DNA of 64,000 nt from Candidatus Dojkabacteria bacterium. GTDB lineage: Bacteria; Patescibacteriota; Dojkabacteria; B142; OLB20. The DNA lies in contig CP129475.1 in assembly GCA_030583785.1 (NCBI GenBank), forward strand, positions 1,106,209 through 1,170,208, read 5' to 3'. Position numbers and translations under genes: made by a program. Shown piece by piece: positions 27,253-62,819 of this stretch (position 1 is the first letter of the stretch; each line of letters opens with the position of its first letter). The notes beneath the pieces were generated by a model. The model saw only the letters and a program-made list of their open reading frames with translations, was not told the origin of the DNA and searched no databases.

Positions 27253-27326
27253 TGCCGGGTCGTCTAAAGGTAGGACTTTGGTTTCTGGCACCAAAAATCG
27301 GGGTTCGAATCCCTGCCCGGCAACCA
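27253..27326 (+). tRNA. tRNA-Gln (anticodon CTG), CCA encoded
   Basis: Acceptor TGCCGGG/CCCGGCA with U1-A72, D-stem GTCT/GGAC, anticodon stem TTGGT/ACCAA with loop TTCTGGC, T-arm CGGGG-TTCGAAT-CCCTG, then discriminator A and CCA. Confidence 0.75.
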
Positions 27327-30423: not shown

Positions 30424-30791
30424 TGAAATTTTCAAAAACTTTATACGACTATTTTGTATTACTTACGATGCCGTATTTATCGAAGGAAGAATTTCAAGTC
30501 ACAGTTTATATCTGCTCACAATTGTCTTCAAATAACTGTAATTGGGGTTTTGTAAGTAAATCGGTATTGGTTGACGGTTTTCATCCAATTAACAAATTTG
30601 GAGTCATGACAACAGGAGGAAATGGAACTGGACTTACAACCGAACAAGTTATTAAAGGTTTGGAACAAGCAAAAGACAGAGAATTTCTTTTAATAAGCGA
30701 AATTGAAGATGATCCTGATTTGATTAAGGTTGAAATCAATCAAAATTATTTAAAATTTCACGCTTTTGAATATGTTCAAAAAAACATTTAA
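30423..30791 (+). CDS. hypothetical protein (ICE early region)
   Basis: 122 aa. Its stop overlaps the next start. Confidence 0.35.
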   Translation: MKFSKTLYDYFVLLTMPYLSKEEFQVTVYICSQLSSNNCNWGFVSKSVLVDGFHPINKFGVMTTGGNGTGLTTEQVIKGLEQAKDREFLLISEIEDDPDLIKVEINQNYLKFHAFEYVQKNI

Positions 30792-37416: not shown

Positions 37417-38149
37417 AGAAACAGGTATTCTTTCAATAATACTAAACAGAAGGAATTTCCTTGTTCTAGTAGCAATACTGCTATCTTTCACTATATGGTC
37501 AACAGAGATTCTAAATACTCCTGATCAAAAAATACTTGCTGAATTAGTCTTAGGAGGACTGCTTATTCCTTTTATGTTTGACGCTTATGGAAGACCGCTT
37601 CATGTTTACTTAATTGATGGTATTAAGCATGTATTCTCAAAAAAGAGACAAAGAATTGTACTTGGAAAGGATATTTCGGAAGGAATAATTATTGTTAATG
37701 ATTATCAGTATTCAAGGGTTTTTCAAATTGAACCGATTAACCTTTCGATGAGTAGTGAAGAAGATATTTATGCTTTTAAGAAATATTTACAACAAGCCTT
37801 ATTTGCACTTAAGCATCAAATCCAAATTATCACAATTCAGAAGCATTCAACACATGATAAAGCATTAGAGACAGAAATCGGTAGATACAAAAACCTCAAA
37901 GGGAAACTTCAAGATGAATGTAAATCATATTTGTTAGCTTACCAAGATTTGACTCTAACAATGGAGAGAAGCTTCTATCTTGTCTTAACAGCTTACGCTA
38001 AGGGTTTAGATGATGCAAAACTTAAGCTTGAGGATCAAGAGAATTCATTTGGAAAGTTATTAGAGCAAACCAAAGTGAGACTTATCCCTTTATCAACTCA
38101 AGAAATACTGAATTTGTCTAATCATATTTTATTAATAGCTGAAGAATGA
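37385..38149 (+). CDS. T4SS-associated membrane protein, hypothetical
   Basis: 254 aa with an N-terminal TM. It is translationally coupled between the VirB6-like and VirB4-like genes. Confidence 0.35.
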   Translation: MQEIVPPKLNRETGILSIILNRRNFLVLVAILLSFTIWSTEILNTPDQKILAELVLGGLLIPFMFDAYGRPLHVYLIDGIKHVFSKKRQRIVLGKDISEGIIIVNDYQYSRVFQIEPINLSMSSEEDIYAFKKYLQQALFALKHQIQIITIQKHSTHDKALETEIGRYKNLKGKLQDECKSYLLAYQDLTLTMERSFYLVLTAYAKGLDDAKLKLEDQENSFGKLLEQTKVRLIPLSTQEILNLSNHILLIAEE

Positions 38150-39975
38150 ACCCTATTAAGTATTTTGCAACACAATCAAAATGGGCATGGCAAGATTTGA
38201 ATTTTAAAATCGAGTCAAAAGGTCGTGAATATATTCGTGATGGAATTATTAAACAGGAAATTGCAAAGCTATCTCCTGACGATTCATTGGTTTACGAATT
38301 TATCAATAAAGGAAAGTTTATTGATCTTGGGAATGGAATCATTCAAACCTACATGATATCTGAATTTCCTCAGATTATTTATCCTAATTGGCTTTACGAT
38401 TTAACTAATTACAGCGAACCAATTGTTTTATCACAGTTTATAAAGCCAATAGATCCGCAAAAAGCACTTGCAGGACTTAGAAATAGAATAACTAATCTTT
38501 CAGCTCAATATTATGAACGAGCAGAAAAAGGAAAAGTTCATACTTCTGACTTAGAACAAGCAATTGCAGATGCACGAAGCATTGAAGATGCAATTGTTAG
38601 AGGTGTTGAAAAGCTTTACTCAATGACTATGTACATAAAGTTAGATTCAATTAACGAAAAACTCTTGAGTAAAAGTGATAAAAGCCTAAAGGATCTAACT
38701 TTCGCTAAACAAATTGAGCTACATCAACTTGTTTTCAAACAATCTGAAGGGATTGAATCATTCTTACCAAAAGGAGTTGATAAAGTTAGTGAAGAGTTCT
38801 ATCTCACAAGTTCCAATGTTTCGTCATCGTTACCATTTACTACTGCAACACTTAATGATCCTGACGGAATATTTTATGGAATAACAATAGGTGGTGAAAA
38901 GATTCGTTTTGACAGATTCTCTAAAACCTCCAAAAATTTTAACGGAATTATCTTTGCTACTTCAGGTGCAGGAAAGAGTTTTTCAGCGAAATTAGAGGCA
39001 TATAGGAGCTTGTTTAGGGGGATTAATGTTTATGTCATTGATCCTGAAGGTGAATTTAGAACCCTATGTAATGCAGTCGGTGGTACAAATATCGATATCA
39101 ATCCTGAAAGCCCAACAAAGGTAAATCCACTACAGTTTTTCTCAAGTAATGTTGATTCAAAGGAAGTAATGAGAACCCATTTAGGAGTTGTTAAAGGGCT
39201 TCTGAAGATTTGGTTATCGAGTAAAACATACAATAGAGGGATTATTAGTAAAGCTGTAAATAATGCTTACGCTTCAAAAGGAATAATACTTGAAGATCCC
39301 TCAACATACTCAAAAGAACCTCCAACTGTATCAGATTTGATAGCTAGTTTTGAAAAAGAAAGTGCTGATGGAAAACAAATCGCAGTTGAATTACTAGAAT
39401 ATTCAAAAAAAGGTGAACTCGGAGATCTTTACGATAATGCTTCAACAAGTGATGTTAATTTTAACTCTCCAATGGTTGTATTCAATATTCAGAAAGTACC
39501 TGACCAAGAGAAACAAGCTTCAATTTTCTACTTATCAAATTTTATATGGCAAAAAGTTTTATCAAATAGGAAAAGAAAGGTTTTGATAATTGATGAGGCT
39601 CACTTACTCCTAAAAGATGAGTCTTCAGCGAACTTTATTGAAAATCTTGTAAGACGAGGAAGAAAATATAATCTCGGAGTCATTTGTATTTCACAAGATG
39701 TTGACGATTTCCTTAATTCACCTCAAGGAAGTGTTATTGCGAAGAATGCTGATACAGCTCTGATACTTGCTCAAAAGAAACAATCAATACCAAACTTAGC
39801 TAAAGCGTTTGATCTATCAGATATTGAAAAAGACTACATAACAAGACTGACCAAAGGTCAAGCCTTGTTTATCAAAGGAAATACTCATTCTCATATTTAT
39901 ATTTACGCTACTCCTCATGAAAGGCAACTTTATTCATCGAGTGCTGAAGAATTAGCTAAAAATGATAAAAAATAA
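38146..39975 (+). CDS. VirB4/TraC/TrsE-family conjugal-transfer ATPase
   Basis: 609 aa. Walker A 'ATSGAGKSF', Walker B 'KVLIIDEAHLLL', and 'ICISQDVDDF' typical of VirB4-like proteins. Confidence 0.7.
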   Translation: MNPIKYFATQSKWAWQDLNFKIESKGREYIRDGIIKQEIAKLSPDDSLVYEFINKGKFIDLGNGIIQTYMISEFPQIIYPNWLYDLTNYSEPIVLSQFIKPIDPQKALAGLRNRITNLSAQYYERAEKGKVHTSDLEQAIADARSIEDAIVRGVEKLYSMTMYIKLDSINEKLLSKSDKSLKDLTFAKQIELHQLVFKQSEGIESFLPKGVDKVSEEFYLTSSNVSSSLPFTTATLNDPDGIFYGITIGGEKIRFDRFSKTSKNFNGIIFATSGAGKSFSAKLEAYRSLFRGINVYVIDPEGEFRTLCNAVGGTNIDINPESPTKVNPLQFFSSNVDSKEVMRTHLGVVKGLLKIWLSSKTYNRGIISKAVNNAYASKGIILEDPSTYSKEPPTVSDLIASFEKESADGKQIAVELLEYSKKGELGDLYDNASTSDVNFNSPMVVFNIQKVPDQEKQASIFYLSNFIWQKVLSNRKRKVLIIDEAHLLLKDESSANFIENLVRRGRKYNLGVICISQDVDDFLNSPQGSVIAKNADTALILAQKKQSIPNLAKAFDLSDIEKDYITRLTKGQALFIKGNTHSHIYIYATPHERQLYSSSAEELAKNDKK

Positions 39976-46043: not shown

Positions 46044-46940
46044 ATGGAAAATATTAGAATAACATACAATCAAATAGAACTAGTAGATACTATACATTCA
46101 TTCAGGTACTTACCTCTTAAAGTATTAATAAAAATTGCAAAAAAACAAAATCTCTATTCACATAAACAAAACTTAGGACGAATCATAATTAAACTTGAAA
46201 AACGAGGTTATATAAAATCTTTCTTCTATGGCAACAATTGGAAAGTTTTATATATTACGAAATTGGGCGGTGAATTATTGACTCAAGCGAAAGGAATATT
46301 GGCAAAAGACTTGTCTGTGCCAAATCAAAATGGAAAATTACAATTTGCCATGCTTGAGCATACGGTGAGTATTGCAGAGCTATACGAACAGTTGACCGAT
46401 CAATTACCAAATTATACGAATTTACGACTTGTAGACTGGCAAGGCGATCAAAAATGTTTCTACCAATATACGATTCGTGTTTACGATTCAGGAAGGAATC
46501 AGAAACGAAACCTTTCTCCCGATTCGTACTTTAAACTCATTAAAGGTGATGAAAGCATAGAATTCTTTCTAGAGTACGATACGGGGCAAATGGATAAAGA
46601 CCAACTGGCACGAAAGTTTATGCGGTATTTTGAATATTTCATATATGGTAACTGGAAGGAGAGTTTTCTAACTTTCCCTTCAATACTTTTCGTAACTGAG
46701 CGTTCTGAAAAAGAAATTTCAAAATTAGTTGTTCAAGACAACTTTAATATTGAACAGGCTTTAGAAAACAGAAATCAGTTTACTGATTCTGACAATGTTA
46801 TTTACAGAGGTATTGGTTATTCCGATAACCTTAAAAGCTATAGCTTTGAGGAAATAACATCTTTTCTAAAAACTAGAATTATATTTACGAAAAAGAATGA
46901 AATATGGTCAAAACAATTACTCGAGAAGTTATCGCAATAA
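46044..46940 (+). CDS. replication-relaxation family-like protein (putative relaxase/replication-initiator of the element)
   Basis: 298 aa. Its size and N-terminal wHTH-like region resemble PF13814-type proteins of Gram-positive ICEs. Weak, context-based call. Confidence 0.35.
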   Translation: MENIRITYNQIELVDTIHSFRYLPLKVLIKIAKKQNLYSHKQNLGRIIIKLEKRGYIKSFFYGNNWKVLYITKLGGELLTQAKGILAKDLSVPNQNGKLQFAMLEHTVSIAELYEQLTDQLPNYTNLRLVDWQGDQKCFYQYTIRVYDSGRNQKRNLSPDSYFKLIKGDESIEFFLEYDTGQMDKDQLARKFMRYFEYFIYGNWKESFLTFPSILFVTERSEKEISKLVVQDNFNIEQALENRNQFTDSDNVIYRGIGYSDNLKSYSFEEITSFLKTRIIFTKKNEIWSKQLLEKLSQ

Positions 46941-49471: not shown

Positions 49472-49678
49472 TTGATGAATTCTATCGCAGAAAAAATACG
49501 AAATAAAAGGTCGGAATTAGGTTTAACCCAAGAGCAACTAGCAATTAAAGCTGGTATCCCTTATACAACGCTCTCAAAGATTGAAAATGATTTAGTCCCC
49601 AATCCCACAATAAAAACATTAAAAAAAATTGCTGATGCTTTGGGTATTTTAGTTGACGATTTATTAGGTAATGATTAG
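49472..49678 (+). CDS. XRE-family HTH regulator (possible controller of downstream R-M module)
   Basis: 68 aa, 'LGLTQEQLAIKAGIPYTTLSKIENDLV'. Its 3' end overlaps the SNF2 gene start by 8 nt. Confidence 0.65.
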   Translation: MMNSIAEKIRNKRSELGLTQEQLAIKAGIPYTTLSKIENDLVPNPTIKTLKKIADALGILVDDLLGND

Positions 49679-52600
49679 AAATTTTAATAATAGAACAACT
49701 AAAGTTGGAGATGATCTAAAAAACACAGTTACTAGTAAAAGCAAAGTTGATGTCGCAGCTGCACTATTTTCAATCTATGGATTTGATTCTCTTAAAAAAG
49801 AATTAAATAAAATCCAATCTATGCGATTTATATTTACAGATCCTACATTTATTGAACTGGATAAAAGCCGAAGAGAACAAAGGTTATTCAAAATAAACGC
49901 GAATTTAACCCAAAAATCAATAAACGGAACAGCTTTAGAGATAAATTTGAGAAACGAACTTAAGGGTAAGGCAATTGCAAAAGAATGCAGGTTATGGATT
50001 GAAAAAAAGGTGAAATTTAAAACAAATACTAGCCATAGGTTTATACAAGAGCAATTAATCATTAATAACGAAGATGAACAATACTTATACAATGGCATAA
50101 ATGAGTTTAGTAGTGCAGGCTTTGGATATGAAAAGGACAATGCAATACTTAGGCAAATTATTAAAACTGATGAGCCTGAAATGACTCGAGAATTCATCAA
50201 AAATTTTAATGAGGTCTGGAATGACGAGTCGGCATTAAAAGATATTACTGATGAGGTTCTTGATTACATAGCGGATTTATATAAAGAAAATTCTCCTGAA
50301 TTTATTTACTACTTAACATTGTTCAATATCTTTGATGAATTCTTGGAAGATATTACTGAAGATGAGTTAGCAAATGAGAAAACAGGATTCAAAGAATCAG
50401 TTGTTTGGAATAAATTGTACGATTTCCAAAAAGACGCTGTACTTGGGATTATAAATAAACTTGAGAGACATAATGGATGTATCCTTGCAGACAGCGTTGG
50501 TCTTGGTAAGACTTTCACAGCTTTAGGAGTAATTAAATACTACCAAGAAAGAAACAAGAGTGTTCTAGTTCTATGTCCAAAAAAACTAAGTGATAACTGG
50601 CAAACATTTCTTGGTAATTATGAAGACAATCCTTTAATAAAGGATAGGTTTAACTATCATGTTCTGTATCATACAGATCTACTGAGAGAACGAGGATTTT
50701 CAAACAGTATTGATTTATCGAGGATTAATTGGGGTAATTACGATTTACTTGTAATTGATGAATCACATAACTTTCGAAATAATGATCAAAGAAAAGATAA
50801 ACTGACAAGATATCAGACTTTACTAAATAAAGTAATTAAGACTGGTGTAAAAACAAAAATTTTAATGCTCTCTGCAACACCAGTAAATAATAGATTTACA
50901 GATTTAAAAAATCAAATTGCTTTAGCATATGAAGGTAAAGTTGATTCTGTTGATGAGAAAATGGATGTTACCAAATCAATTGATGTTATTTTGAGGAATG
51001 CTCAAAAAACTTTCAACGATTGGTCTAAACTTGATATCGAGGAAAGAAACGCCAAAACTTTATTGCAAATGTTAAGTGGTAATTTCGATTTCTTTAAACT
51101 TCTCGACAGCATTACGATCGCACGAAGCCGAAAACATATTGAACGCTATTACGACTCAACAAAAATTGGTAAGTTCCCAAACAGACTTAAACCAATTACA
51201 CATAGATCGAATATTACGAATTTACCCAATTTTATAGAGATTAAAGATTTATATTTAGCCCTCTCAAAGCTTAATTTATCACTGTATACTCCATTTGAAT
51301 ACATTCTAGAAGATAAAAAAGGGTTCTATAGTGATATTTATGATACTAATGTCTCTGAAAGAGTTAGCTTTAAGCAACTTAGTCGAGAACAAAGTCTACA
51401 AAAGCTTATGAGGGTCAACTTACTAAAACGATTAGAAAGTTCTGTTGACTCGTTCAGAATTACCTTGGATAAGTTTATTCAGAAAGTTGAGCATGTCCTT
51501 TCAAGTATTGAGAAATATGAGAAGGAAGGGCTAAATTTTAAAAATAATTCAATTAGTATCGAGACAAATGAAGTCGATTTCGAGAACGAAGATTGGCTAG
51601 ATGAAGATTTCAGTATTGGTGAGAAAGTAAAAATTAATCTCGAAGACATGAATACTACTGGTTGGAAAGATGATTTAAATGCGGATTTAAAGATAGCTTC
51701 TGATTTACTCGCCGAAATGAAGAAAGTGACACCAGAACATGATACAAAACTAATCGATCTAAAAGGATATATTGAGAATAAAATTAAAAATCCAATTAAT
51801 GCAGGTAATAGAAAAGTACTTATCTTCAGTGCTTTTGCAGATACTGTAAATTATCTGTATGAAAACTTAGCACCATATCTCAAGAATAATCTTTCTTTAG
51901 ATGTTGCAAAGGTAACAGGTTCGGATAAAAATGAAGCAACTTTGAAGATTGATACTCAATTCAATAACTTACTAATTCATTTTTCTCCGATTTCAAAGGG
52001 AAGACAGGACAAATACGCTGAAAATAAAGATATTGATGTTTTGATAGCAACTGATTGTATATCAGAAGGTCAAAATCTACAGGATTGTGATACCTTGATT
52101 AATTATGATATTCATTGGAATCCTGTTCGTATTATTCAAAGGTTTGGAAGAATTGACAGAATTGGGTCAAAGAATAAGGATATTCAGTTGATTAATTTTT
52201 GGCCTCAACTATCCTTAGATGATTATATTAATCTTAAGAATCGTGTCGAGACTAAAATGTTTATTGTTGATGCGACAGCTACTGGTGAAGATAATGTATT
52301 AACAAATGAATCTTCTGACCTACTTTTTCGAAAAAAACAATTAGAAAAATTGCAAAATGAAGTAGTTGATATCGAAGATATGGATTCAGGAGTATCAATT
52401 ACAGACTTAGGACTTAACGATTTCAGGATGGATTTAGTTTCGTATTTAAACAGAGTAGGTACATTAGAGAATATTCCTAATGGAATGCACTCTGTTTGTA
52501 GAGCCAATAAATCCATAGGTGTAGATAGAGGTGTAATTTTTGTTCTGAAAAATCTCAATAATGAAGTAAATATTGATAAAACCAACCAATTACATCCATT

Positions 52601-52925
52601 CTATTTGGTGTATATTCGTGAAGATGGAGAAATTTTATCAAATCATCTTAATGTTAAGAACACCCTTGATATTTTGAGGTCTATTTCAAAAGGTCAATCA
52701 GAGCCAATCAAAGATGTGTATGCACTCTTCAACGAGGAGACAAATGATGGAAAGGATATGCATAAATACTCTGAGTTGTTGAACAATTCAATCAGTTCAA
52801 TATTAAATGTAAAAGATGAATCAGATGTTGATAGTCTTTTTAAGGTTGGAGGCACAACTGCCCTTATCAATAGCATTAAAGGGCTTGAAGACTTTGAGTT
52901 AATTTCATTTATTGTGATAAAGTAA
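49671..52925 (+). CDS. SNF2-family (SWI2/SNF2) helicase-like ATPase
   Basis: 1084 aa. Motif I 'ADSVGLGKTFTALGV', motif II 'DLLVIDESHNFRN', 'LSATPVNNRFTDL', and the helicase-C block 'ATDCISEGQNLQDC...NPVRIIQRFGRIDRIGS'. Confidence 0.75.
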   Translation: MIRNFNNRTTKVGDDLKNTVTSKSKVDVAAALFSIYGFDSLKKELNKIQSMRFIFTDPTFIELDKSRREQRLFKINANLTQKSINGTALEINLRNELKGKAIAKECRLWIEKKVKFKTNTSHRFIQEQLIINNEDEQYLYNGINEFSSAGFGYEKDNAILRQIIKTDEPEMTREFIKNFNEVWNDESALKDITDEVLDYIADLYKENSPEFIYYLTLFNIFDEFLEDITEDELANEKTGFKESVVWNKLYDFQKDAVLGIINKLERHNGCILADSVGLGKTFTALGVIKYYQERNKSVLVLCPKKLSDNWQTFLGNYEDNPLIKDRFNYHVLYHTDLLRERGFSNSIDLSRINWGNYDLLVIDESHNFRNNDQRKDKLTRYQTLLNKVIKTGVKTKILMLSATPVNNRFTDLKNQIALAYEGKVDSVDEKMDVTKSIDVILRNAQKTFNDWSKLDIEERNAKTLLQMLSGNFDFFKLLDSITIARSRKHIERYYDSTKIGKFPNRLKPITHRSNITNLPNFIEIKDLYLALSKLNLSLYTPFEYILEDKKGFYSDIYDTNVSERVSFKQLSREQSLQKLMRVNLLKRLESSVDSFRITLDKFIQKVEHVLSSIEKYEKEGLNFKNNSISIETNEVDFENEDWLDEDFSIGEKVKINLEDMNTTGWKDDLNADLKIASDLLAEMKKVTPEHDTKLIDLKGYIENKIKNPINAGNRKVLIFSAFADTVNYLYENLAPYLKNNLSLDVAKVTGSDKNEATLKIDTQFNNLLIHFSPISKGRQDKYAENKDIDVLIATDCISEGQNLQDCDTLINYDIHWNPVRIIQRFGRIDRIGSKNKDIQLINFWPQLSLDDYINLKNRVETKMFIVDATATGEDNVLTNESSDLLFRKKQLEKLQNEVVDIEDMDSGVSITDLGLNDFRMDLVSYLNRVGTLENIPNGMHSVCRANKSIGVDRGVIFVLKNLNNEVNIDKTNQLHPFYLVYIREDGEILSNHLNVKNTLDILRSISKGQSEPIKDVYALFNEETNDGKDMHKYSELLNNSISSILNVKDESDVDSLFKVGGTTALINSIKGLEDFELISFIVIK

Positions 52926-52926
52926 T

Positions 52927-53544
52927 ATGAATTTACAGTTACCAAATAAAGCTCGAGTACAAAAATTTATTCCAAAGAATAAGTTTTTTGCTAAGGCAGT
53001 TGTAAATTCAAAGCTAAAGGACGACTTTACTATCAAAATTGAGAAAATCACATGGCTTTATAAGGTCTCAGAAGAAACTGTTGGAATTCCAAAAACTAAA
53101 AATGTAGAAGAGATTCAAGTTTTTGAAATTATACTAAAGGAACAAGTTATACCTAAGAATATAATAACCTTAATAGATAAGACAATCCCATACCCAATAC
53201 TCTATCGTTTTTTTTATAAAGATCACTTTGCCTTCGGTATTACATACAAAATTGATGGAAACTTTAGTAACTTCTACTCCGAATGGGACTATCCACTTGA
53301 ATTTGAATTTAATGCAAAAAACCTAGAAATTGTGTATCAAAACATCGTGAAAGAGTTTATGCATAAATCGGAAAAGCCACAATTTGAAGAAGCATTCGAA
53401 GACGACAAACAGATTAAGATTCTTGAAAAAAACATTACAAATTTAAAAAATAGGATTAAACTTGAAACTCAATTTAAAAATAAAGTAGATTTGAATGAGG
53501 AGTTAACAAAACTTAAGTTACAATACAATAAATTATTAAACTAA
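52927..53544 (+). CDS. hypothetical protein accompanying the SNF2 helicase (possibly DUF4391-like)
   Basis: 205 aa. The start is 2 nt after the helicase stop. No catalytic motif seen. Confidence 0.3.
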   Translation: MNLQLPNKARVQKFIPKNKFFAKAVVNSKLKDDFTIKIEKITWLYKVSEETVGIPKTKNVEEIQVFEIILKEQVIPKNIITLIDKTIPYPILYRFFYKDHFAFGITYKIDGNFSNFYSEWDYPLEFEFNAKNLEIVYQNIVKEFMHKSEKPQFEEAFEDDKQIKILEKNITNLKNRIKLETQFKNKVDLNEELTKLKLQYNKLLN

Positions 53545-53551
53545 AAACAAT

Positions 53552-55396
53552 ATGAAAAAACTTTCTTTTAAAACACCAGATTTATCTATCGAGAATATTG
53601 AGAAATTACAAAAGTTATTTCCTAATGTTGTAACAGAAAAACAAAATGAGGTAGGCCAAATTGTTAAATCTATTGATTTTGATCTATTAAGACAATTATT
53701 GTCTGATAGTATTGTTGAAGATGAAAACGAGCGATATAGATTAGATTGGCCTGGTAAAAAAGCTTCATTACTGAAAGCAAACACCCCTATTACTAAAACA
53801 CTCAGACCAATTAGAGAAGAAAGCGTTAATTTTGATACAACACAGAATCTCTATATTGAGGGTGATAATTTTGAAGCATTGAAAATACTTCAAGAATCAT
53901 ATCTTGGTAAGATAAAGATGATTTATATTGATCCACCTTACAATACTGGTAAGGATTTTGTTTATAAGGATAATCGTAGTGTTAGCAAAGAAGATTATGA
54001 AGATCAGTTAGGTGTAGAAGATGAAGAAGGAGGAAAGTTATTCAGAAATACAGATACAAATGGAAGATTTCATAGCGATTGGTTATCTATGATGTATGAA
54101 AGATTATTGATTGCAAGAGACCTTTTAAAAGACGACGGAGTAATTTTTATGAGTATTGATGATAATGAAGTTCATAATTTAAGAAAAATTAGTGATGAAG
54201 TATTTGGAGAAGATAATTTTATAATTAATATTTGCCATAAATCAAGAGCTTCTGTTTCGAACGATAAGATTGTATCACCCAACCACAATCACATTCTGCT
54301 TTATGCTAAAGATATTGAAGTTATTGAGTCAATTCGAAGCTCTTTTGGTATAGAACCTGATTTAAATGGCTTTACAAATAGAGATGAAATGGGTGAATAC
54401 AAATTAGTACCAGTTGACGGTCCTGGAGGTGCAATGAAAGGGAATCCGTACTATGAGTTTCTAGGTATAAAAGGATATTGGAGATTTTCGAAGACTACAA
54501 TGCAAAAAATGTATGAAAATGGATTAATAATCAAAAAGGAAAATAGTTTACAACAAAAATATTATAAACAAGATGCAGAAAAAACTAGGAAAACTGTAAC
54601 TTCATGGTGGGATGATAAATTTTATACTTCAAATGCTACAAGAAGTTTAGCTGAGTTGATGGGTGGAAAAGTATTTGATAATCCTAAACATTTAGAATTG
54701 ATAACTAGAATGCTTACTCTACATGTTAGAGATGATAACGATATTGTACTGGACTACTTCTCTGGGTCTGCGACTACTGCTCATGCACTACTTCTACAAA
54801 ATGCTAGAGATGGAGTAAATAGAAAGTTTATTATGATTCAATTACCTGAAGAAACGGATGTAACTAGTGAAGCATATAAATCAGGTTATTTAAATATATG
54901 TCAAATTGGAAAGGAAAGAATTCGCCGAGCAGGTAAAAAAATTATTGCCGATTTTCAAGAACAATTGGAAAAGAGAGAGACACCATTAGATATCGGTTTT
55001 AGAGTCTATAAGGTTGATTCTACTAATATGAAAGACGTGTACTATCACCCATCGGATCTTACTCAGACTACTCTTGAAACTCTTATAGACAATGTAAAAG
55101 ATGACAGAACATCTGAAGATCTATTAACTCAAGTGATGCTTGATTTGGGCTTAGAGCTAACATTACCGATAGAAGTAAAAGAATACTCTGGTCATAAAGT
55201 GTTTTTCGTACAAGGTAATACTCTAATTGCCTGTTTTGAAAAAATAAAGGATTTTTCAATCGTTGATGATTTAGCAAAGCTAGAACCACTAAAGGTAGTA
55301 TTAAAAGATTCAAGTTTTGTAGATGACAAGGATAGAATCAATTTTGAGAATAGATTCAAGAGATTTTCACCCGATACTCAGATAACAGTGATTTAA
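53552..55396 (+). CDS. Type III R-M Mod-like N6-adenine DNA methyltransferase (beta-class)
   Basis: 614 aa. Motif IV 'IYIDPPYNTG' precedes motif I 'VLDYFSGSATTAHA', the beta-class order. Confidence 0.75.
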   Translation: MKKLSFKTPDLSIENIEKLQKLFPNVVTEKQNEVGQIVKSIDFDLLRQLLSDSIVEDENERYRLDWPGKKASLLKANTPITKTLRPIREESVNFDTTQNLYIEGDNFEALKILQESYLGKIKMIYIDPPYNTGKDFVYKDNRSVSKEDYEDQLGVEDEEGGKLFRNTDTNGRFHSDWLSMMYERLLIARDLLKDDGVIFMSIDDNEVHNLRKISDEVFGEDNFIINICHKSRASVSNDKIVSPNHNHILLYAKDIEVIESIRSSFGIEPDLNGFTNRDEMGEYKLVPVDGPGGAMKGNPYYEFLGIKGYWRFSKTTMQKMYENGLIIKKENSLQQKYYKQDAEKTRKTVTSWWDDKFYTSNATRSLAELMGGKVFDNPKHLELITRMLTLHVRDDNDIVLDYFSGSATTAHALLLQNARDGVNRKFIMIQLPEETDVTSEAYKSGYLNICQIGKERIRRAGKKIIADFQEQLEKRETPLDIGFRVYKVDSTNMKDVYYHPSDLTQTTLETLIDNVKDDRTSEDLLTQVMLDLGLELTLPIEVKEYSGHKVFFVQGNTLIACFEKIKDFSIVDDLAKLEPLKVVLKDSSFVDDKDRINFENRFKRFSPDTQITVI

Positions 55397-55403
55397 CTTC
55401 TGA

Positions 55404-58400
55404 TTGATAAAAATTATGAAATTAAAATTTAAACAACAAAAATATCAATCAGATGCTACTGAGTCAATTACGAACCTATTTCTTGGACAATCAAAGGGTT
55501 TAAGAAAAGAAATGGTAGGTAGACAAGGGTTTATGGTTGAAGAGATATTTTCAAATAAGAAATTAGAACTTTCTGAAGCTGAAATTCTAAACAATTTACA
55601 ATTAGTTCAAAAACAAAATGCCTTAAAGGTTTCAAAGAAACTTGAAGGACTGAACTTTACAGTTGAGATGGAAACTGGAACTGGTAAGACATATGTTTAC
55701 ACAAAAACTATGTTTGAACTTAATAAGTTGTATGGTTGGAGTAAGTTTATTATTCTCGTCCCATCTGTTGCAATTAGAGAAGGTGTTAATAAGTCATTAG
55801 AAATCACATCAGACCATTTTCAAGAAATATATGGAAAACGAATCAGATTTTCTATTTACAACACTCAAAACAAGTCGAATTTAAACAATATAAAGTCATT
55901 TGCAAATACTAGTAACATCGAAGCCATCATAATGAATTATCAGGCTTTCGCTACGAATAGCAAAGAATCACGAAAGATTTTTCAGAAACTTGATGGACTG
56001 CAATCTGAAAAACCAATCGATATTATTAAAAGATCTAGACCAATATTGATTGTTGACGAACCTCAAAGATTTGGCAATGCCGAATCAATGTTCCATGAAT
56101 TCAACCCTTTGTTCATATTAAGATATTCAGCAACACATAAAGCAGACAAAGAATACAACAAGGTTTATAGCCTAGATGCAATTGATGCATTTAATCAAAA
56201 ACTTGTGAAGAAGATTAGTGTTAAAGGAATTGAGGTCGTTGGTAATAGTGGTACAAATAGTTTCCTATTTCTAGACAGAATAAATATTAGCAAAGATTCA
56301 TTTCCAACAGCGAATATTGAACTTGAAGTAAAGCAACAGAGTGGCATTAAGAAATCAATAAGACGAATAAAAGAGACAGATGATTTGTTCCAATTGTCAG
56401 GAGAGTTACAACAGTATAAGGGTTTTGTTGTTAAAGAAATTAATGGATTATCAAACAAAGTTAGTTTCATTAATGGTATATCCGTAAGTGTTGGACAAAC
56501 AATTGGAGATGTCGATGAAGTTCATCTTAGAAGGATTCAGATTAGGGAAACAATTAAATCTCACCTTGAGAAAGAACAAACGATGTTTTCTAAGGGAATA
56601 AAGGTTTTATCGTTATTTTTTATTGATGAAGTATCTAAATATAAGACATATGACGATAATAACAATGAAATAAAGGGTGATTATGCAAAAATATTTGAAG
56701 AGGAGTATGAACAAGCTACTAGTCAAAAATCATTATTCAATCAGGAGTATAACGCATACCTTGAAAAATTTAGAGTTAGCGAAGTGCATAATGGATACTT
56801 CTCTATTGATAAAAAAGGAAGAATTATTAATTCGACTGAAAAAAGAGGAAGTTTGGGGAGTGATGATGTAAACGCTTACGACTTAATAATGAAGAATAAG
56901 GAGAGATTACTTAGTTTTGAAGAACCTACAAGGTTTATATTTTCCCATTCGGCACTCAGAGAAGGTTGGGATAATCCGAATGTTTTTCAGATATGTACTT
57001 TAAAACATAGTCAATCAACGATAAGCAAAAGACAGGAAATAGGTCGAGGACTTAGGATTAGTGTGAATAACGATGGGGATAGAATGGACTTTGAAAAACT
57101 TGAGACAGATTTCTTTGGTGTAAATACTCTCACTGTTATCGCAAGTGAATCTTATGATAATTTTGCACGAGAATTGCAAACAGAAATTTTAGACTCATTA
57201 TCCGATAGACCTATTAAGCTAACTGTTGATGTTCTGAAAAATAGAATACTTAAGAATACTGAAGGAGCTGAGTATTTATTTGATGATACAAAGGCAATGA
57301 ATCTGATTTTCAAGTTTCGAGAAAATGGATACTTGTCGGAAGACTATACATTAACTGAAAAACTTATCAAAGATATTGATAACGAAACATTGCTATTACC
57401 TTCTGACTTAAAAGAATATTCAATAGAAGTATCACAGATCATGAAGAAAATCTATGATACTGCAACATTTACAGCTACAAGCAATGAGAAAGCGGATAAT
57501 GTATTTGAAAAAGAATTAAAACCTAACGATAACTTTGCGAAAAAAGAATTTCAAGAACTTTGGAGCAAAATAAAAGTAATGACTGTTTATGATGTTTCAT
57601 TCGAAAGTAATGAGCTTATTAGTAAATCCGTAGAAGCGATTAATAAAGAATTAGAAGTAAGAAAAGTCATAATTAAAACAACACAAGGAGGACAAGTCGA
57701 AGAATTAACTGAGGAACTTTTGAAGGCGGGTGAAAGTATGACTTCAGCAAATATTCAGACTATGAGTGCAAAATCTATATTAGGAAATGTTAAATATGAT
57801 TTGATTTCAGAAATTACAAAAGGAGCAAATATAACAAGACAAACCGCTGTATCAATTTTACAAAAGATTAGTTCTCATAAGTTTGAATTATTCCAAGAAA
57901 ACCCTGAAGATTTTATTCAAAAAATAGTCAACCTTATTAATCAAGAAAAAGCAACAACCCTGATAAACAACATTACTTATTCGAAAATCAATGCGACTTA
58001 TGGAGATGACATTTTTACAATTAACAACTTTCAGGGATCATTACAGAAGAATATTCTTGAAGTAAAAAAACACATATACGATTACGTTAAAACAGACTCT
58101 GATGTAGAAAGAAAATTTGCAAATGACATGGAGAATGGAGAAATCTTAGTTTATGCAAAACTACCAAGCGGTTTTAAAATTCCTACACCTGTTGGTAATT
58201 ATAATCCCGATTGGGCTATCGTCTTTGATACCACAGACGTTAAATATATCTATTTTATAGCTGAGACCAAAGGTAGTATGAGTACAATGGATTTGAAGAA
58301 GACAGAGGAGTTAAAAATTGAGTATGCAAGAAAGCACTTCGAGTCGCTTGGAAACAAAGACATTAAGTATGATGTGATTACTACATACGATGATTTAAGG

Positions 58401-58418
58401 AATAAAGTAATGCAATAA
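55404..58418 (+). CDS. Type III restriction enzyme Res subunit (SF2 helicase + nuclease)
   Basis: 1004 aa. Motif I 'METGTGKTYV', motif II 'ILIVDEPQRF', 'ICTLKHSQSTISKRQEIGRGLR' (motif VI-like), and a C-terminal PD-(D/E)xK-like region. Confidence 0.7.
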   Translation: MIKIMKLKFKQQKYQSDATESITNLFLGQSKGLRKEMVGRQGFMVEEIFSNKKLELSEAEILNNLQLVQKQNALKVSKKLEGLNFTVEMETGTGKTYVYTKTMFELNKLYGWSKFIILVPSVAIREGVNKSLEITSDHFQEIYGKRIRFSIYNTQNKSNLNNIKSFANTSNIEAIIMNYQAFATNSKESRKIFQKLDGLQSEKPIDIIKRSRPILIVDEPQRFGNAESMFHEFNPLFILRYSATHKADKEYNKVYSLDAIDAFNQKLVKKISVKGIEVVGNSGTNSFLFLDRINISKDSFPTANIELEVKQQSGIKKSIRRIKETDDLFQLSGELQQYKGFVVKEINGLSNKVSFINGISVSVGQTIGDVDEVHLRRIQIRETIKSHLEKEQTMFSKGIKVLSLFFIDEVSKYKTYDDNNNEIKGDYAKIFEEEYEQATSQKSLFNQEYNAYLEKFRVSEVHNGYFSIDKKGRIINSTEKRGSLGSDDVNAYDLIMKNKERLLSFEEPTRFIFSHSALREGWDNPNVFQICTLKHSQSTISKRQEIGRGLRISVNNDGDRMDFEKLETDFFGVNTLTVIASESYDNFARELQTEILDSLSDRPIKLTVDVLKNRILKNTEGAEYLFDDTKAMNLIFKFRENGYLSEDYTLTEKLIKDIDNETLLLPSDLKEYSIEVSQIMKKIYDTATFTATSNEKADNVFEKELKPNDNFAKKEFQELWSKIKVMTVYDVSFESNELISKSVEAINKELEVRKVIIKTTQGGQVEELTEELLKAGESMTSANIQTMSAKSILGNVKYDLISEITKGANITRQTAVSILQKISSHKFELFQENPEDFIQKIVNLINQEKATTLINNITYSKINATYGDDIFTINNFQGSLQKNILEVKKHIYDYVKTDSDVERKFANDMENGEILVYAKLPSGFKIPTPVGNYNPDWAIVFDTTDVKYIYFIAETKGSMSTMDLKKTEELKIEYARKHFESLGNKDIKYDVITTYDDLRNKVMQ

Positions 58419-58440: not shown

Positions 58441-58656
58441 ATGAATAGACAATTAGTTAGCTCATCAAACATTGCAAGTATTGGATACGATCCAGATATG
58501 CAAACTCTTGAAATACAATTTCATAACGGAGGTATTTATCAATATTATAATGTTCCAGTAAGCATTTATAATGCATTAATGTCTGCATCTTCACATGGTG
58601 CTTACTTTGATCAACACATCAAAAAATCAGGTTATAGATTTAGTAAAGTAGGATGA
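58441..58656 (+). CDS. KTSC-domain small protein
   Basis: 71 aa. The '...IGYDPDMQTLEIQFHNGGIYQYYNVPVSIYNALMSASSHGAYFDQHIK' pattern matches the KTSC (PF13619-like) consensus as I recall it. Its stop overlaps the next start (ATGA). Confidence 0.55.
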   Translation: MNRQLVSSSNIASIGYDPDMQTLEIQFHNGGIYQYYNVPVSIYNALMSASSHGAYFDQHIKKSGYRFSKVG

Positions 58657-60425
58657 AAATAAGTAGTATAAATATACACAATTGGCGTTCAATAGAAAAT
58701 CTTTCACTCAAATTTGAAAATTTGATGATTTTTATTGGACAGAATAATCATGGGAAATCAAATGTTTTATCAGCAATTCTATTTTTCTTTGGTGAAGTGT
58801 CATTAAATATCACTGATTATAGAAAAGGAACAAATGAACTTTGGGTTGAATTAGAGTTTGTAGATTTAGATGAACATGATCAAACACAGTTTAAAAAATA
58901 CCTAACGACATCAAAGAGTATTAAAGTAAGGAGAACAGCAAATTCTGAGAATGGAGTTTCGTATAACGGATATACTCAAATACCTAAGAATATATTACTT
59001 AGTGAATCAATATTATCTGACTATACCAATCGAGAAAAAGCACAAGAGCTTCCGTATTATTCGTTACTGCCTTCTTCGGGAAGAATTACAAAAACTTTAC
59101 TCTCGGAGGCTTTAACAAGCTATCTAATTAACAATGCTAGTACGATTGAATTCGAATATAAGCTTGAAGAAAGCGGTTTTCTAGGTGCAAAAAATATTGC
59201 ACAAGGAATTTTCGGTACAGTAATCTTTGTCCCTGCTTTGAAGAATACATTGGACGAGTTATCTACAAAAGGTTCTTCCACTTTCAGTAAACTTCTTTCA
59301 AAAGTTATAACTGAGATGTCGGAAAATAATGATAAGTATAAGGAAGCAAGAGACAAAATTAAAGATTTAACAAAGATATTAAATAAGCAAAAAGATGATG
59401 GAAACTATAATGAAGAAAGACCAAAAGAATTAACCTCATTGGAAGAGAAAATTGAATCACAATTAATTACATGGAATACTAAAATTGATATTGAAATTTT
59501 CCCACCAAATATTGATGAAATTTTTAAACTTGGTACACAGGTATGGATTGATGATGGTGTCAAGACGGATATTAGTCATAAAGGACATGGTTTGCAAAGA
59601 TCAATCTTGTTTGCATTAATTAGATCTTGGGTTGATGTGTCTCAAGCGATTAAAAAAACAGAAGAGAGTGACGAAGATTTAGGAAGGAGATCGTCAAAAT
59701 CGACTTTCTTTGTTTTAGAAGAACCTGAATTGTATTTACATCCACAAGCACAAAGGGAGTTTTTTCAAGTATTGAAAACCCTTGCTGAGGGAGAAAATCA
59801 AATAGTACTAAGCACACACTCAAGCTATTTTATCGATTTAGCGTTGTATAAATCAATCTGTATAGTTAAAAAAGAAAGCTCTACATCTCCAACGGTTTGT
59901 TTTCAATGCTCAGATGATTTACTCGAAATGGTTGAAGAAAAGAAAGCATTCAATTTAACATACTGGATAAATCCTGATCGTGGAGAACTATTCTTTTCAG
60001 AAAAAACTATACTTGTCGAGGGTCAATCTGAGAAGACAATAATTCCTTTTCTTGCTAGTAGAATCGGAGTTTTTAAACATAGCTATACAATTGTAGATTG
60101 TGGTAGTAAAACTAACATCCCACTTTATATTCACCTCCTAAATAAATTTAAGCTCCCATATGTAGTCGTGTATGATAAAGATCATCAAGAAGGCAAAAAT
60201 TCACAGGCGATTCAATCAGCTGATATCGCTACTAATGCGATAACTGAGTCAATTGATACCTCTTTAGGAATAAGCATAGAGTTAATCAATGATATTGAGG
60301 AAGAGATAGGAATTACTGATAAAAGGGCACATGGTAAGCCATTTGAAGCACTTGAGCATATCACTCACAAATCATATTTGATATCTGAGGCTTTGAAAAA
60401 TAAAATTATCACAATTTATAAATAA
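58653..60425 (+). CDS. OLD-family nuclease: N-terminal AAA_15/ABC-type ATPase + C-terminal Toprim domain
   Basis: 590 aa. Walker A 'GQNNHGKSN', Walker B/D-loop 'FFVLEEPELYLHP', H-loop 'LSTHS', and Toprim 'TILVEGQSEKTIIPF' ... 'VVVYDKD'. Confidence 0.75.
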   Translation: MKISSINIHNWRSIENLSLKFENLMIFIGQNNHGKSNVLSAILFFFGEVSLNITDYRKGTNELWVELEFVDLDEHDQTQFKKYLTTSKSIKVRRTANSENGVSYNGYTQIPKNILLSESILSDYTNREKAQELPYYSLLPSSGRITKTLLSEALTSYLINNASTIEFEYKLEESGFLGAKNIAQGIFGTVIFVPALKNTLDELSTKGSSTFSKLLSKVITEMSENNDKYKEARDKIKDLTKILNKQKDDGNYNEERPKELTSLEEKIESQLITWNTKIDIEIFPPNIDEIFKLGTQVWIDDGVKTDISHKGHGLQRSILFALIRSWVDVSQAIKKTEESDEDLGRRSSKSTFFVLEEPELYLHPQAQREFFQVLKTLAEGENQIVLSTHSSYFIDLALYKSICIVKKESSTSPTVCFQCSDDLLEMVEEKKAFNLTYWINPDRGELFFSEKTILVEGQSEKTIIPFLASRIGVFKHSYTIVDCGSKTNIPLYIHLLNKFKLPYVVVYDKDHQEGKNSQAIQSADIATNAITESIDTSLGISIELINDIEEEIGITDKRAHGKPFEALEHITHKSYLISEALKNKIITIYK

Positions 60426-60427
60426 TT

Positions 60428-61465
60428 ATGTCAAAAATCATACAGTTAGACCAAAGGCTTAAAAGAACAAAGATTACATCGTTTGAAATAGAAAATGATG
60501 TGGTTTTCAATTATTTCAATAACCTTACTGATGGAGAAAGAGATGAGAAACTACAGAAGGCATTGTATATCGGTGTATTAGCATTGATGGAAGACAGATT
60601 GTCCTCATTCTTATCTAAGACTCAAAATGAATTAGGTACAGAATTGGAAAGCCTAAAAATGATTTTTGATATGAAGAAAGAAATCTTTTTCAAAACTACA
60701 GTTAAAGGTATGTTAGCTGAAGATGATGTAGCGGAGTTCCTAAATAGTTACTTTAAAGATAAAAAACTGAAGGATCGTGCTGAACTTACTGGAACTTCAG
60801 AAGGTTTATTACCAAAGAATAAATCAGGGGATATTATATGTTATGTAGATGGAGAAGAAGATAAGAAAATTGCATTAGAGATAAAATTCGATAAATCAAT
60901 GCGACTTGGTGATATCGAGAATAAAGATGTGTTTACTAAGAAACAAGATACTGCATGGAGCCAAATAATTGAAGCAAAAGCAAATAGAGGCTCTAAAGTA
61001 GGGATTATTGTCTTTGATATTTCCTTATGTGACAATTCTATCTTGAAGTTTACGGATAGTGTTGGATTTATCGATGGCATAGGTTTTATCGTTATAGTTG
61101 ATTCACAAAAAGGTAATTATTCAAATCTTGTAATTGCCTACAATCTAGCGAGAGATATTGTTATCAATGCTAAGGAGATTGAGTTTGATTCCAAGACACT
61201 CACTCTCATATTAAAAAGAATAATAAAAGATATTGATACATTCTTATCGATAAAATCCTTAGTGGAAAGCAATATTCAAACTAATGTCGAGATATTAAAG
61301 CAATTAGAAAAAGGACTATTACAGATGGAATTTAATCAGTTATATCTTCAAAAGTTTTTAACAGACGGCAAGCTTAATGAAAAAGATTTACTTGAGTTTT
61401 ATACCGCAGAGGATATAAAAGAAAAGTTCAAAGCCATAGAAAGTGAGCTTAATAGTAAGATTTAA
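60428..61465 (+). CDS. hypothetical protein, possible PD-(D/E)xK-fold nuclease
   Basis: 345 aa. 'ICYVDGEEDKKIALEIKFDK' has the D...E-x-K spacing. The start is 2 nt after the OLD stop. Confidence 0.3.
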   Translation: MSKIIQLDQRLKRTKITSFEIENDVVFNYFNNLTDGERDEKLQKALYIGVLALMEDRLSSFLSKTQNELGTELESLKMIFDMKKEIFFKTTVKGMLAEDDVAEFLNSYFKDKKLKDRAELTGTSEGLLPKNKSGDIICYVDGEEDKKIALEIKFDKSMRLGDIENKDVFTKKQDTAWSQIIEAKANRGSKVGIIVFDISLCDNSILKFTDSVGFIDGIGFIVIVDSQKGNYSNLVIAYNLARDIVINAKEIEFDSKTLTLILKRIIKDIDTFLSIKSLVESNIQTNVEILKQLEKGLLQMEFNQLYLQKFLTDGKLNEKDLLEFYTAEDIKEKFKAIESELNSKI

Positions 61466-61482
61466 TTTTATTACTTAATTAT

Positions 61483-61713
61483 ATGCAAACATATACTAAC
61501 AGAGGCGGGGATTCGAATGTACAAAGTTTTGAAAATGGCGATGACTACATAATTGTTGAATTTGGTGGAAATGGTAGATTCACGACTTACAAATATACTT
61601 ATGCTAGTGCAGGTCAACATGCTGTCGAGGAAATGAAAGATCTTGCTTTAGCAGGTCATGGACTTAATTCATATATTTCTTCGAACAAGCCTAATTATTC
61701 CGAAAGATGGTAA
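61483..61713 (+). CDS. second KTSC-domain small protein
   Basis: 76 aa. '...IIVEFGGNGRFTTYKYTYASAGQHAVEEMKDLALAGHGLNSYI' matches KTSC. It overlaps the next gene by 7 nt. Confidence 0.5.
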   Translation: MQTYTNRGGDSNVQSFENGDDYIIVEFGGNGRFTTYKYTYASAGQHAVEEMKDLALAGHGLNSYISSNKPNYSERW

Positions 61714-62819
61714 ATGATAGCTTTATCAAGGAAAGGTCTTACTATGAAGACATTTTTGATCTTCTAACTATCGAAGAAGCGTTAAGAATAAAAAATGATT
61801 CCCCCTCATCTGATAATTCCTACTCTGACAAATTTCCGCCTGAAACAGTAAAAGCTATGCGAAAAACAGTTAATGAACTACTGTTGTTTTTTTATTTAGG
61901 TGAAAGAGTAAAGAAAAAAAAATTGTATCTTGAAAGAATGTTGTCGGAAGATAAAGAAAAACAGCAATTTTACGACTCTAAGTTTGAACCAAACAACATA
62001 TTATGCCCATATTGTAAGTCACCTTTTAAGCTGATTGATAAAACATTAGATGACTACTCTAGTTCACAAATGCAAGTGATTTTTATGTATGAATGTATTA
62101 GTTGCAAGAAAAGGTCTTGTTTCTTTTCTGATGGCAAACTTAAAACATTTCCACCTGACGAATGTTCTAACTGTAAAAGTACTGATATTTCTGAAAAGTC
62201 AGTACAAACCCCAAGAAAAACTACTATTACTGCGAAATGTAATTCATGTGGTCATATTAATGAAACTATTTACGATTTGGATGAATTAGAGCAATCAAGG
62301 ACAGAGAGAGAAAAGTACAAGAATTCAATGTTTATGACATACAGAAGTGAATTTTGCCTTGATGAAAACTCTAAAGAGTATAAATCGTACATACATAGCT
62401 TAAATTCTCTTGAAACAATGAAAAAGCTTACAGCTGAATTTGAGGGTAATAGTCATGATCCAGTTATTCCGCTAATAAAAAGTATTTCGATTAAAACAGT
62501 TATTCAATTGGAAGATATTATTAATAAATCAATAAAAGACGACGGTTATGATCGATTTGTTTTGGGAGTTCCAGTTATTGATAAAGATGTTATTATTCAA
62601 TTCACTCTTTATGATATTAAAGGACGACCTGAACTTGAATCTACATATGAGCTTAAGAGAATCATAAAGATAGCATTAACAGATACTAATTGGAGACTGA
62701 TGAGCGAGGGAATCACTTATAATCTAGGAATCTTGTCAGGTAGATTGCGAGGTTATCAAGCTGAGAAATCTATTTACGAGTTAGCAAGGCAAAAGTATAA
62801 AAAGCAAACTAAGACTTAA
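61707..62819 (+). CDS. multi-zinc-ribbon protein, hypothetical
   Basis: 370 aa with four CxxC pairs ('CPYCKS', 'CISCKK', 'CSNCKS', 'CNSCGH') suggesting two zinc ribbons. The C-terminal half has no recognisable motif. Confidence 0.4.
   Translation: MVNDSFIKERSYYEDIFDLLTIEEALRIKNDSPSSDNSYSDKFPPETVKAMRKTVNELLLFFYLGERVKKKKLYLERMLSEDKEKQQFYDSKFEPNNILCPYCKSPFKLIDKTLDDYSSSQMQVIFMYECISCKKRSCFFSDGKLKTFPPDECSNCKSTDISEKSVQTPRKTTITAKCNSCGHINETIYDLDELEQSRTEREKYKNSMFMTYRSEFCLDENSKEYKSYIHSLNSLETMKKLTAEFEGNSHDPVIPLIKSISIKTVIQLEDIINKSIKDDGYDRFVLGVPVIDKDVIIQFTLYDIKGRPELESTYELKRIIKIALTDTNWRLMSEGITYNLGILSGRLRGYQAEKSIYELARQKYKKQTKT

Follow-up and report, generated by a model that had tools for sequence, protein, structure and literature searches.

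OLD-family proteins, which join an ABC ATPase to a Toprim nuclease, have been sorted by genomic context into four classes: those of Class 1 stand alone, those of Class 2 are accompanied by the UvrD-like GajB, and Classes 3 and 4 belong to retrons and to PARIS (PMC10568477). Complex formation is general in defence systems that combine a nuclease with a nucleoside triphosphatase (NTPase) (bioRxiv 10.1101/2025.07.10.664194). The present analysis concerns an OLD gene in a 64,000-nucleotide stretch of a Candidatus Dojkabacteria genome (the window; contig CP129475.1, positions 1,106,209 to 1,170,208), where it is the second in a row of five genes, termed here g1 to g5. The first-pass annotation of this DNA had taken all five for a single unit built around the OLD protein, a view that comparison with related loci did not bear out: what is conserved is a KTSC-domain mini-protein (g1) together with a putative nuclease (g3), the OLD protein (g2) being interchangeable and g5 independent. 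We consider it fairly probable that KTSC, OLD and g3 make up a three-component nuclease-NTPase anti-phage module, with g4 an optional addition and g5 an independent gene translationally coupled at its 3' end. We rate it as a real and undescribed modular nuclease-NTPase cassette, presumably for defence, and not as a five-gene system.

The five open reading frames (ORFs) are present where the first-pass annotation had placed them, all on the plus strand. g1 (58441..58656, 71 amino acids (aa)) is a free-standing KTSC-domain protein (PF13619); g2 (58653..60425, 590 aa) comprises an OLD-family ABC ATPase and a Toprim nuclease (AAA_15, OLD-like_TOPRIM); g3 (60428..61465, 345 aa) is a PD-(D/E)xK protein of the restriction-endonuclease fold; g4 (61483..61713, 76 aa) is a mini-protein of an unannotated family; and g5 (61707..62819, 370 aa) carries two zinc ribbons (four CxxC pairs). 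In the NCBI annotation g2 is an 'AAA family ATPase', and g3 and g5 are each a 'hypothetical protein'. The stop codon of g1 and the start codon of g2 overlap in an ATGA at 58653-58656, 2 nt separate g2 from g3, and g4 and g5 overlap by 7 nt (ATGGTAA, 61707-61713), all as read from the sequence; the claim that the genes are joined throughout by 2-nt gaps or overlapping starts holds at these three junctions but not between g3 and g4, which lie 17 nt apart. Among the five start codons examined, those of g1, g3 and g4 have no recognisable Shine-Dalgarno sequence before them, and a megablast search of the operon DNA against plasmids gave no match. In PADLOC-DB v2.0.0 no model matches g1, g3, g4 or g5 (E<=0.1) or two homologues of g3 (E<=0.001), and the unit is absent from that database; g2 has 'Old' as its best model, in keeping with the partial OLD match expected beforehand. 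The searchable literature on KTSC (PF13619) and PDDEXK_15 (PF24608) gives no account of such a system beyond one sentence of unpublished observations (LA) on HerA, KTSC and an endoDNase in PMC9503650, and the claim that the system is undescribed stands with that reservation.

Through g3 we gathered 110 loci, annotated with hidden Markov models (HMMs) of the window genes and by clustering; the class counts that follow refer to the 70 non-redundant g3 loci with at least 3 kb of upstream sequence. g3 closes operons of variable content and is separated from the gene upstream by a median gap of 2 nt (<=20 nt in 77/81). A KTSC-type small gene occurs upstream of it in 61/70 loci: a Pfam-like KTSC in 51, g4 in 19 and a family of 95-111 aa (F6) in 12. 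Five NTPase classes account for 60/70 loci: OLD ATPase-Toprim proteins (22 loci; two families, 23-53% identical to g2), SIR2_2 with HerA/DUF87 (22 loci), PrrC-like AAA_13 proteins (8 loci; PADLOC PDC-S06, 2e-125), a pair of 815-aa and 322-353-aa proteins (5 loci; weakly PtuA/LmuB-like) and SMC_N-like proteins of 714 aa (3 loci; PDC-S46, 3e-241). The other 10 loci include one AAA+ protein with a helix-turn-helix (HTH)-WYL-WCX protein; at the AAA+-WYL locus, L037, g3 is found with an unclassified 70-aa protein.

The window order KTSC-(g4)-OLD-g3 is repeated in 22 loci from Bacteroidota, the Candidate Phyla Radiation (CPR) and other phyla, and Woesebacteria share the window arrangement of Type III restriction-modification (R-M), then KTSC, OLD and g3. 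Individual examples are Flagellimonas marina, with KTSC-OLD-g3 (L013), and Sphingobacterium hungaricum, with SIR2-HerA-KTSC-g4-OLD-g3 (L014). In more than 35 loci, which span four NTPase families, the NTPase gene separates KTSC from g3 and either overlaps its neighbours or leaves almost no gap; where the NTPase module is SIR2-HerA, KTSC directly adjoins g3 and the two genes overlap, and a discrete four-gene unit, SIR2-DUF87-KTSC-g3, stands beside an IS91 on plasmid pPZ02 of Paracoccus zhejiangensis (L114). Type III and Type I R-M genes occur near the cassette, Wadjet JetA/JetC and SLFN/AlbA_2 proteins are among its downstream neighbours, and its partners are known or candidate defence genes, namely SIR2-HerA (validated), PDC-S06 and PDC-S46. 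Homologues of the window genes thus co-occur elsewhere, as KTSC, NTPase and g3, and since their order is conserved the chance juxtaposition that had been held open for the window does not apply. Gene order accordingly suggests that the KTSC mini-protein and g3 are the invariant core of a large unnamed family in which the NTPase, of at least five types, is exchangeable, g2 being the one that the window carries.

The three components differ in how closely they resemble their window counterparts. Relative to the window copy, g3 keeps 60-73% identity regardless of which NTPase class it accompanies; for KTSC the range is 33-71%, with averages of 59% at OLD loci and 46% at HerA loci and a loose grouping by NTPase class; the OLD proteins reach only 23-53% against g2. 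At one locus (L040) g3 is 94% identical but the ATPase only 23%. An adaptor model fits this gradient, because g3 is near-constant, KTSC more variable and loosely grouped with its NTPase, and OLD the most divergent: KTSC could be an adaptable handle which contacts the variable NTPase and offers a constant face to the invariant nuclease. A bolder extension, which we put forward tentatively and would not yet back against the alternatives taken together, is that KTSC and g3 form a universal plug-in effector/adaptor cassette common to at least five structurally unrelated defence NTPases, with the KTSC fold as the docking handle.

Two of the NTPase classes merit separate mention. The 815-826-aa and 322-353-aa pair lies between KTSC/g4 and g3 (L104:2955-6457, L011:4511-8038, L050, L092, L101); the larger protein has weak similarity to PtuA/LmuB only, with no Pfam match, and its partner has no match at all. 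PDC-S06 (L077:2079-4385) and PDC-S46 (L067:3402-5543) sit in g4-NTPase-g3 operons, and KTSC is found upstream in L067 and in other loci of these two classes; these PADLOC 'single-gene' candidates may be incomplete as defined.

The D...ExK motif that had been noticed in the 345-aa protein was confirmed as GD135...E151-I-K153, and the PD-(D/E)xK triad is invariant in the g3 family. Like other members of the PD-(D/E)xK superfamily, g3 combines a restriction-endonuclease-like alpha/beta core with the D...(D/E)xK motif, and long helices flank this core. Against PDDEXK_15 (PF24608; cutoff 27) the window protein gives no match, one homologue (P0089) scores 30.7 bits and another (P0118) 26.8; a search of PDB sequences with the g3 profile gave no matches. 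Relatives number about 2,260 in a collection of 5.8 billion sequences, the best 120 of them, from Woesebacteria, Nomurabacteria, Dojkabacteria and Bacteroidota, being 65-97% identical. Searched by tblastn, g3 is found in 0/50,697 phage records, and IMG/VR, with 2.9 M viral contigs, yields only 3 loci, two of which lie at contig ends; being near-absent from phage and viral genomes, the family is not a phage gene. Nor is it a homing endonuclease or selfish insertion: with different partner genes upstream from locus to locus, it lacks the constant target site that such an element would need. One copy, in a metagenome-assembled genome (MAG) of an uncultured Dysgonomonadaceae (L025:7995-9022), is broken into two ORFs of 144 and 185 aa, either as a pseudogene or through an assembly error.

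The assignment of g1 to KTSC is clear (94.5 bits against PF13619, cutoff 25; E 3e-27), and the KTSC profile also matches PDB 7x8c (4e-28) and 4rgi. The domain had been thought to occur otherwise only fused to LysRS or as orphan proteins; this proved too narrow. The profile matches residues 628-696 of HerA from Paenibacillus sp. 453MF (PDB 8wiv; 1.6e-24), and KTSC is likewise fused to the HerA C-terminus in L026 (L026:5861-7987, 709 aa), a close homologue of 8wiv (6e-210) in whose homologous operons g3 lies directly 3'. Further fusions are to an SLFN_AlbA_2-HATPase_c_4-Fic_C protein (L088) and to proteins of 321-326 aa. The paper that describes 8wiv names only SIR2 and HerA, never KTSC; it defines a 'C-terminal arm domain (aa 576-696)' that reaches around the adjoining subunit and lends stability to the split-spiral hexamer (PMC11472057), and the KTSC segment falls within this arm, which contacts the neighbouring ATPase subunit. 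We propose that g1 may act as an adaptor or regulatory subunit. Library scans detected no DNA-binding HTH in either g3 or KTSC.

In g2 the motifs attributed to it on first reading are all intact: Walker A GQNNHGKS at 29-36, Walker B FFVLEEPE at 352-359, the H-loop STHS at 387-390 and, in the Toprim domain, E456 within LVEGQSE at 454-460 and D508-K-D510. Profile matches agree (AAA_15, 2e-39; AAA_21, 3e-17; OLD-like_TOPRIM PF20469, 5e-16, residues 447-510). The 'Old' model of PADLOC (1e-76) scores ahead of AriA and GajA, and the nearest solved structure is the Class 1 TsOLD, 6p74 (1e-25); the AriA and PtuA HMMs match the ATPase half of g2, AriA covering residues 1-394 only.

The second mini-protein is less easily placed. 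g4 had been called a KTSC protein alongside g1, a call that Pfam confirms for g1 alone: g4 matches nothing in Pfam (E<=0.1), NCBIfam, PADLOC or PDB sequences and has no BLASTP similarity to g1, and hhalign relates it to KTSC only weakly (E=0.005, then 2.8e-4 with deeper alignments; probability 41%), in a collinear, end-to-end alignment of 62 columns. It is possibly a very diverged KTSC-like fold. Its family comprises about 3,189 homologues, and none of the 120 listed has a Pfam domain. KTSC and g4 both match domains within large phage proteins (phrog_3292, 17428, 24656), the match of g4 to phrog_17428 being at 1.5e-17. g4 stands beside KTSC, upstream of the NTPase, in 19/70 loci, and in the loci surveyed it follows g3 and overlaps g5 only in the window and in L004/L031; this distribution marks it as a recurrent and seemingly optional component. 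In some loci the KTSC/g4 position is filled by F6 (95-111 aa; L056:4747-5034, L016, L068, L058) or by F41 (82 aa; L073:286-531), whose sequences (…RIVEPH…GNE.L.AYQ…W.LF.I…) resemble minimal WYL domains by eye; neither has a Pfam match.

Domain identities, intact catalytic residues, conserved gene order, fusions and the defence-island context are established by the sequences; that the proteins form a physical complex, that KTSC is its adaptor, what the nuclease cuts and that the whole acts against phages are inferred. In the mechanism we envisage, with less confidence than in the module itself, an oligomer of the NTPase (here OLD) would serve as sensor or motor and recognise phage DNA or a phage protein; KTSC, perhaps with g4, would dock on it, in trans where free and in cis where fused to HerA, and would couple it to g3. 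Thus licensed, g3 would cut DNA as a metal-dependent endonuclease, much as McrC does with McrB, and in the OLD version the Toprim nuclease would work alongside it. The outcome would be destruction of phage DNA or abortive infection.

Several observations weigh against such a module. Class 1 OLD proteins can act alone. The AlphaFold2 model of g3 is only moderate, with a predicted local distance difference test score (pLDDT) of 68.5, and g3 is unusually conserved for a defence effector (329 matches among 1.84 billion representatives), which might indicate that its target is housekeeping-like or regulatory. The HerA arm contacts stressed in the structural study are those of helices alpha19-20, not demonstrably the KTSC part, and the same study reported SIR2-HerA as a sufficient two-gene defence system (PMC11472057). 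With SIR2-HerA sufficient and Class 1 OLD autonomous, KTSC and g3 may be dispensable or independent.

The main rival takes up this last point: the genes would be co-located only, OLD being self-sufficient in the manner of Class 1, and KTSC with g3 being an independent two-gene unit that gathers beside defence NTPases, for instance a toxin-antitoxin (TA) pair in which a small antitoxin or DNA-binding protein accompanies a nuclease toxin, or a restriction-like nuclease that works by itself. That Class 1 TsOLD is the nearest match of the window OLD, that SIR2-HerA works as two genes, that KTSC and g3 adjoin or overlap in SIR2-HerA loci as the genes of a type II TA pair do, and that the identity of g3 is independent of its partner are all as this explanation would have them. 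It accounts poorly for the intercalation of an NTPase gene of any of four families between KTSC and g3, for the fusion of KTSC in cis to HerA and to the SLFN-ATPase, and for the near absence, among the loci sampled, of any without an adjacent NTPase. As to a TA pair in particular, KTSC and g3 are neighbours in SIR2-HerA loci, but at OLD, AAA_13 and SMC-like loci an NTPase gene comes between them, and KTSC can be fused to HerA. We regard co-location as unlikely.

The conservation of g3 bears also on a second alternative, that KTSC and g3 are a regulatory, self-protection or addiction module of defence islands, which might limit autoimmunity of the NTPase effectors or stabilise the island on mobile elements. 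Extreme sequence conservation despite varying partners would suit such a function, as would the co-occurrence of WYL-type regulators in some loci (the HTH-WYL-WCX protein of L037) and the presence of the family on an integrative and conjugative element (ICE) and on a plasmid. The invariant PD-(D/E)xK triad, on the other hand, argues for an active nuclease, the lack of a detected HTH in g3 or KTSC speaks against DNA-binding regulation, and a transcriptional regulator would not usually be placed at the 3' end. Taken together these points make a regulatory or addiction role quite improbable.

g5 bears on the original idea of a single obligate five-gene OLD system, with the mini-proteins and the 345-aa and zinc-ribbon proteins all dedicated to OLD. 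The four CxxC pairs ascribed to g5 are indeed present, at residues 100, 130, 153 and 178. Its AlphaFold2 model is confident (pLDDT 89.5): a helical hairpin at the N-terminus is joined by two zinc ribbons and, at the C-terminus, by an alpha/beta domain of conserved sequence (DTNWRLMSEG...GRLRGY). No informative fold match was found in PDB or BFVD, and the g5 profile drew only zinc-ribbon noise from PDB sequences. Only 100 homologues are detectable. Outside this lineage they lie behind GajA-GajB downstream of a Type III R-M system (L027:9001-10137, 79% identity), directly 3' of a SAVED and SMODS CBASS pair, after a DISARM-like helicase/MZB/trypsin set, beside DrmE/PLD genes and in other islands (family loci: L027, L028:7001-8089, L111:6001-7095, L112:6001-7083, L113:6001-7071). 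No KTSC, g3 or g4 was found near g5 at the Gabija, CBASS, DISARM-like and other such loci. The family is often joined to these unrelated defence operons by overlapping stop and start codons, and in one protein (P0220) the C-terminal 160 aa of g5 are fused to a retron-type reverse transcriptase (RT). Because it is found behind unrelated defence operons without g1-g4, we take g5 to be a separate rider gene; the family may itself represent a defence gene or accessory that has yet to be characterised.

The full order to be looked for in other genomes, KTSC-OLD-X-KTSC-ZnR, was seen in its exact form only in the window, and its 3' part, g3-g4-g5, recurs in one other lineage (L004/L031). As that order persists there although g5 is only 32% identical, a lineage-specific functional link might exist. 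This recurrence, with the co-direction and tight spacing of all five genes, is what speaks for an obligate five-gene system; most KTSC-OLD-g3 loci nevertheless end at g3, unrelated NTPases replace OLD, and g5 occurs without g1-g4, so that we think such a system very unlikely. The module of KTSC, NTPase and g3 remains the reading that we prefer.

The setting of the cassette agrees with what had been claimed for it, a defence island within an ICE, directly downstream of Type III R-M. The host is represented by a MAG of Candidatus Dojkabacteria (CPR/Patescibacteria) with a genome of about 1.2 Mb, in which the window belongs to a 1.17-Mb contig. GC content is 0.32 across about 27-63 kb of the window (the island, about 27000-62900) vs 0.38 outside. 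The island contains a serine recombinase (27264-28784, minus strand), a DUF11 surface protein of 1367 aa (30766-34869), a TraG/VirB4-like ATPase (38146-39975) and a Replic_Relax protein (46044-46940); given its low GC together with the recombinase, the TraG/VirB4-like ATPase and Replic_Relax, it is reasonable to regard it as a putative ICE-like element. Placement at the cargo end of this island, and the matches of KTSC and g4 to phage-protein domains, might suggest an ICE-borne function in DNA processing or anti-restriction rather than defence, but most homologous loci are chromosomal islands beside R-M, Wadjet and CBASS, not conjugation genes, and the partner NTPases are defence families, which leaves this suggestion barely credible.

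Upstream of the cassette the defence array runs in one direction, from an SNF2 helicase and DUF4391 through the Type III Mod (53552-55396, plus strand; PADLOC MTase_III, 1e-211) and Res (55404-58418, plus strand; REase_III, 2e-285), both outside the cassette proper, to g1-g5, and is bounded 3' by a convergent HD-domain gene. The start of g1 lies 22 nt after the stop of Res, and between 53954 and 62819 no terminator-like site was found outside coding sequence, the sole call, at 58585, being inside g1. Where the 'operon' is taken to begin at its 5' side is therefore arbitrary, and Mod and Res are probably co-transcribed with g1-g5. The block at 49671-58418 is itself tight and co-directional (SNF2-family helicase, 1084 aa; DUF4391, 205 aa; Type III Mod; Res); instead of an ordinary Type III R-M it may represent an extended R-M-like system. 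A CPR genome of about 1.2 Mb that devotes some 13 kb to defence invests heavily in it, which makes the array interesting in itself.

Should the three-component module prove true, it would add a further OLD class, whose members pair with a nuclease and use a mini-protein as adaptor; one conserved nuclease shared by many defence ATPases would amount to a modular design rule for nuclease-NTPase immunity; the orphan KTSC domain would gain a function, as would an unexplained C-terminal part of a solved HerA; and it would suggest that PDC-S06, PDC-S46 and some SIR2-HerA systems have been examined in isolation from their natural partners. If the plug-in extension also held, several 'single-gene' or 'two-gene' systems, SIR2-HerA included, would naturally be three- or four-component machines with one shared nuclease.

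Among described systems, Gabija shares with the window locus an OLD-type ABC ATPase-Toprim protein with a dedicated partner, in a tight operon and in defence islands. Its partner GajB, however, is a UvrD-like helicase, in place of which the window has a KTSC mini-protein and a PD-(D/E)xK nuclease; neither UvrD nor any helicase was found in g1, g3, g4 or g5 (Pfam, NCBIfam, PADLOC), and g2 is a closer match to 'Old' and Class 1 TsOLD than to GajA. A true GajA-GajB pair takes the equivalent slot in L027. PARIS (AriA/AriB), Septu (PtuA/PtuB) and Hailibu (DUF4297-HerA) similarly couple an ABC or HerA ATPase to a nuclease effector, but their effectors (DUF4435 Toprim, HNH and DUF4297, respectively) do not match g3 and they have no KTSC adaptor. 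Searches with Pfam and PADLOC found neither DUF4435/AriB nor HNH/PtuB among the partners of g2, and with NCBIfam added they rule out that these are diverged GajB, AriB or PtuB, as had been surmised from the sequence. With respect to Class 3, the five operon genes and both flanks contain no RT domain; non-coding RNA was not searched for. McrBC resembles the cassette in the proposed action of g3 with an NTPase, as McrC with McrB; there is no sequence similarity, the NTPase of McrBC is a GTP-specific AAA+ protein, KTSC is absent and the McrB N-terminal domain recognises modified DNA.

The closest relatives of g2, with the same ATPase and Toprim motifs, are Class 1 OLD proteins (P2 Old; Thermus scotoductus OLD, 6p74), but these are defined as single genes away from other defence genes (PMC10568477), and in 22 independent loci OLD proteins of the window type are set between KTSC and g3, their conserved partners. 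SIR2-HerA (Nezha; Paenibacillus sp. 453MF, 8wiv) is the sister architecture: its HerA carries KTSC at the C-terminus, and homologous operons (L026, L001, pPZ02) end with g3; it differs in having a HerA hexamer and a SIR2 NADase in place of OLD and in having been published as a two-gene system. By its gene neighbourhood the window OLD fits none of Classes 1-4, and we rate it as the putative representative of a new OLD class within nuclease-NTPase defence.

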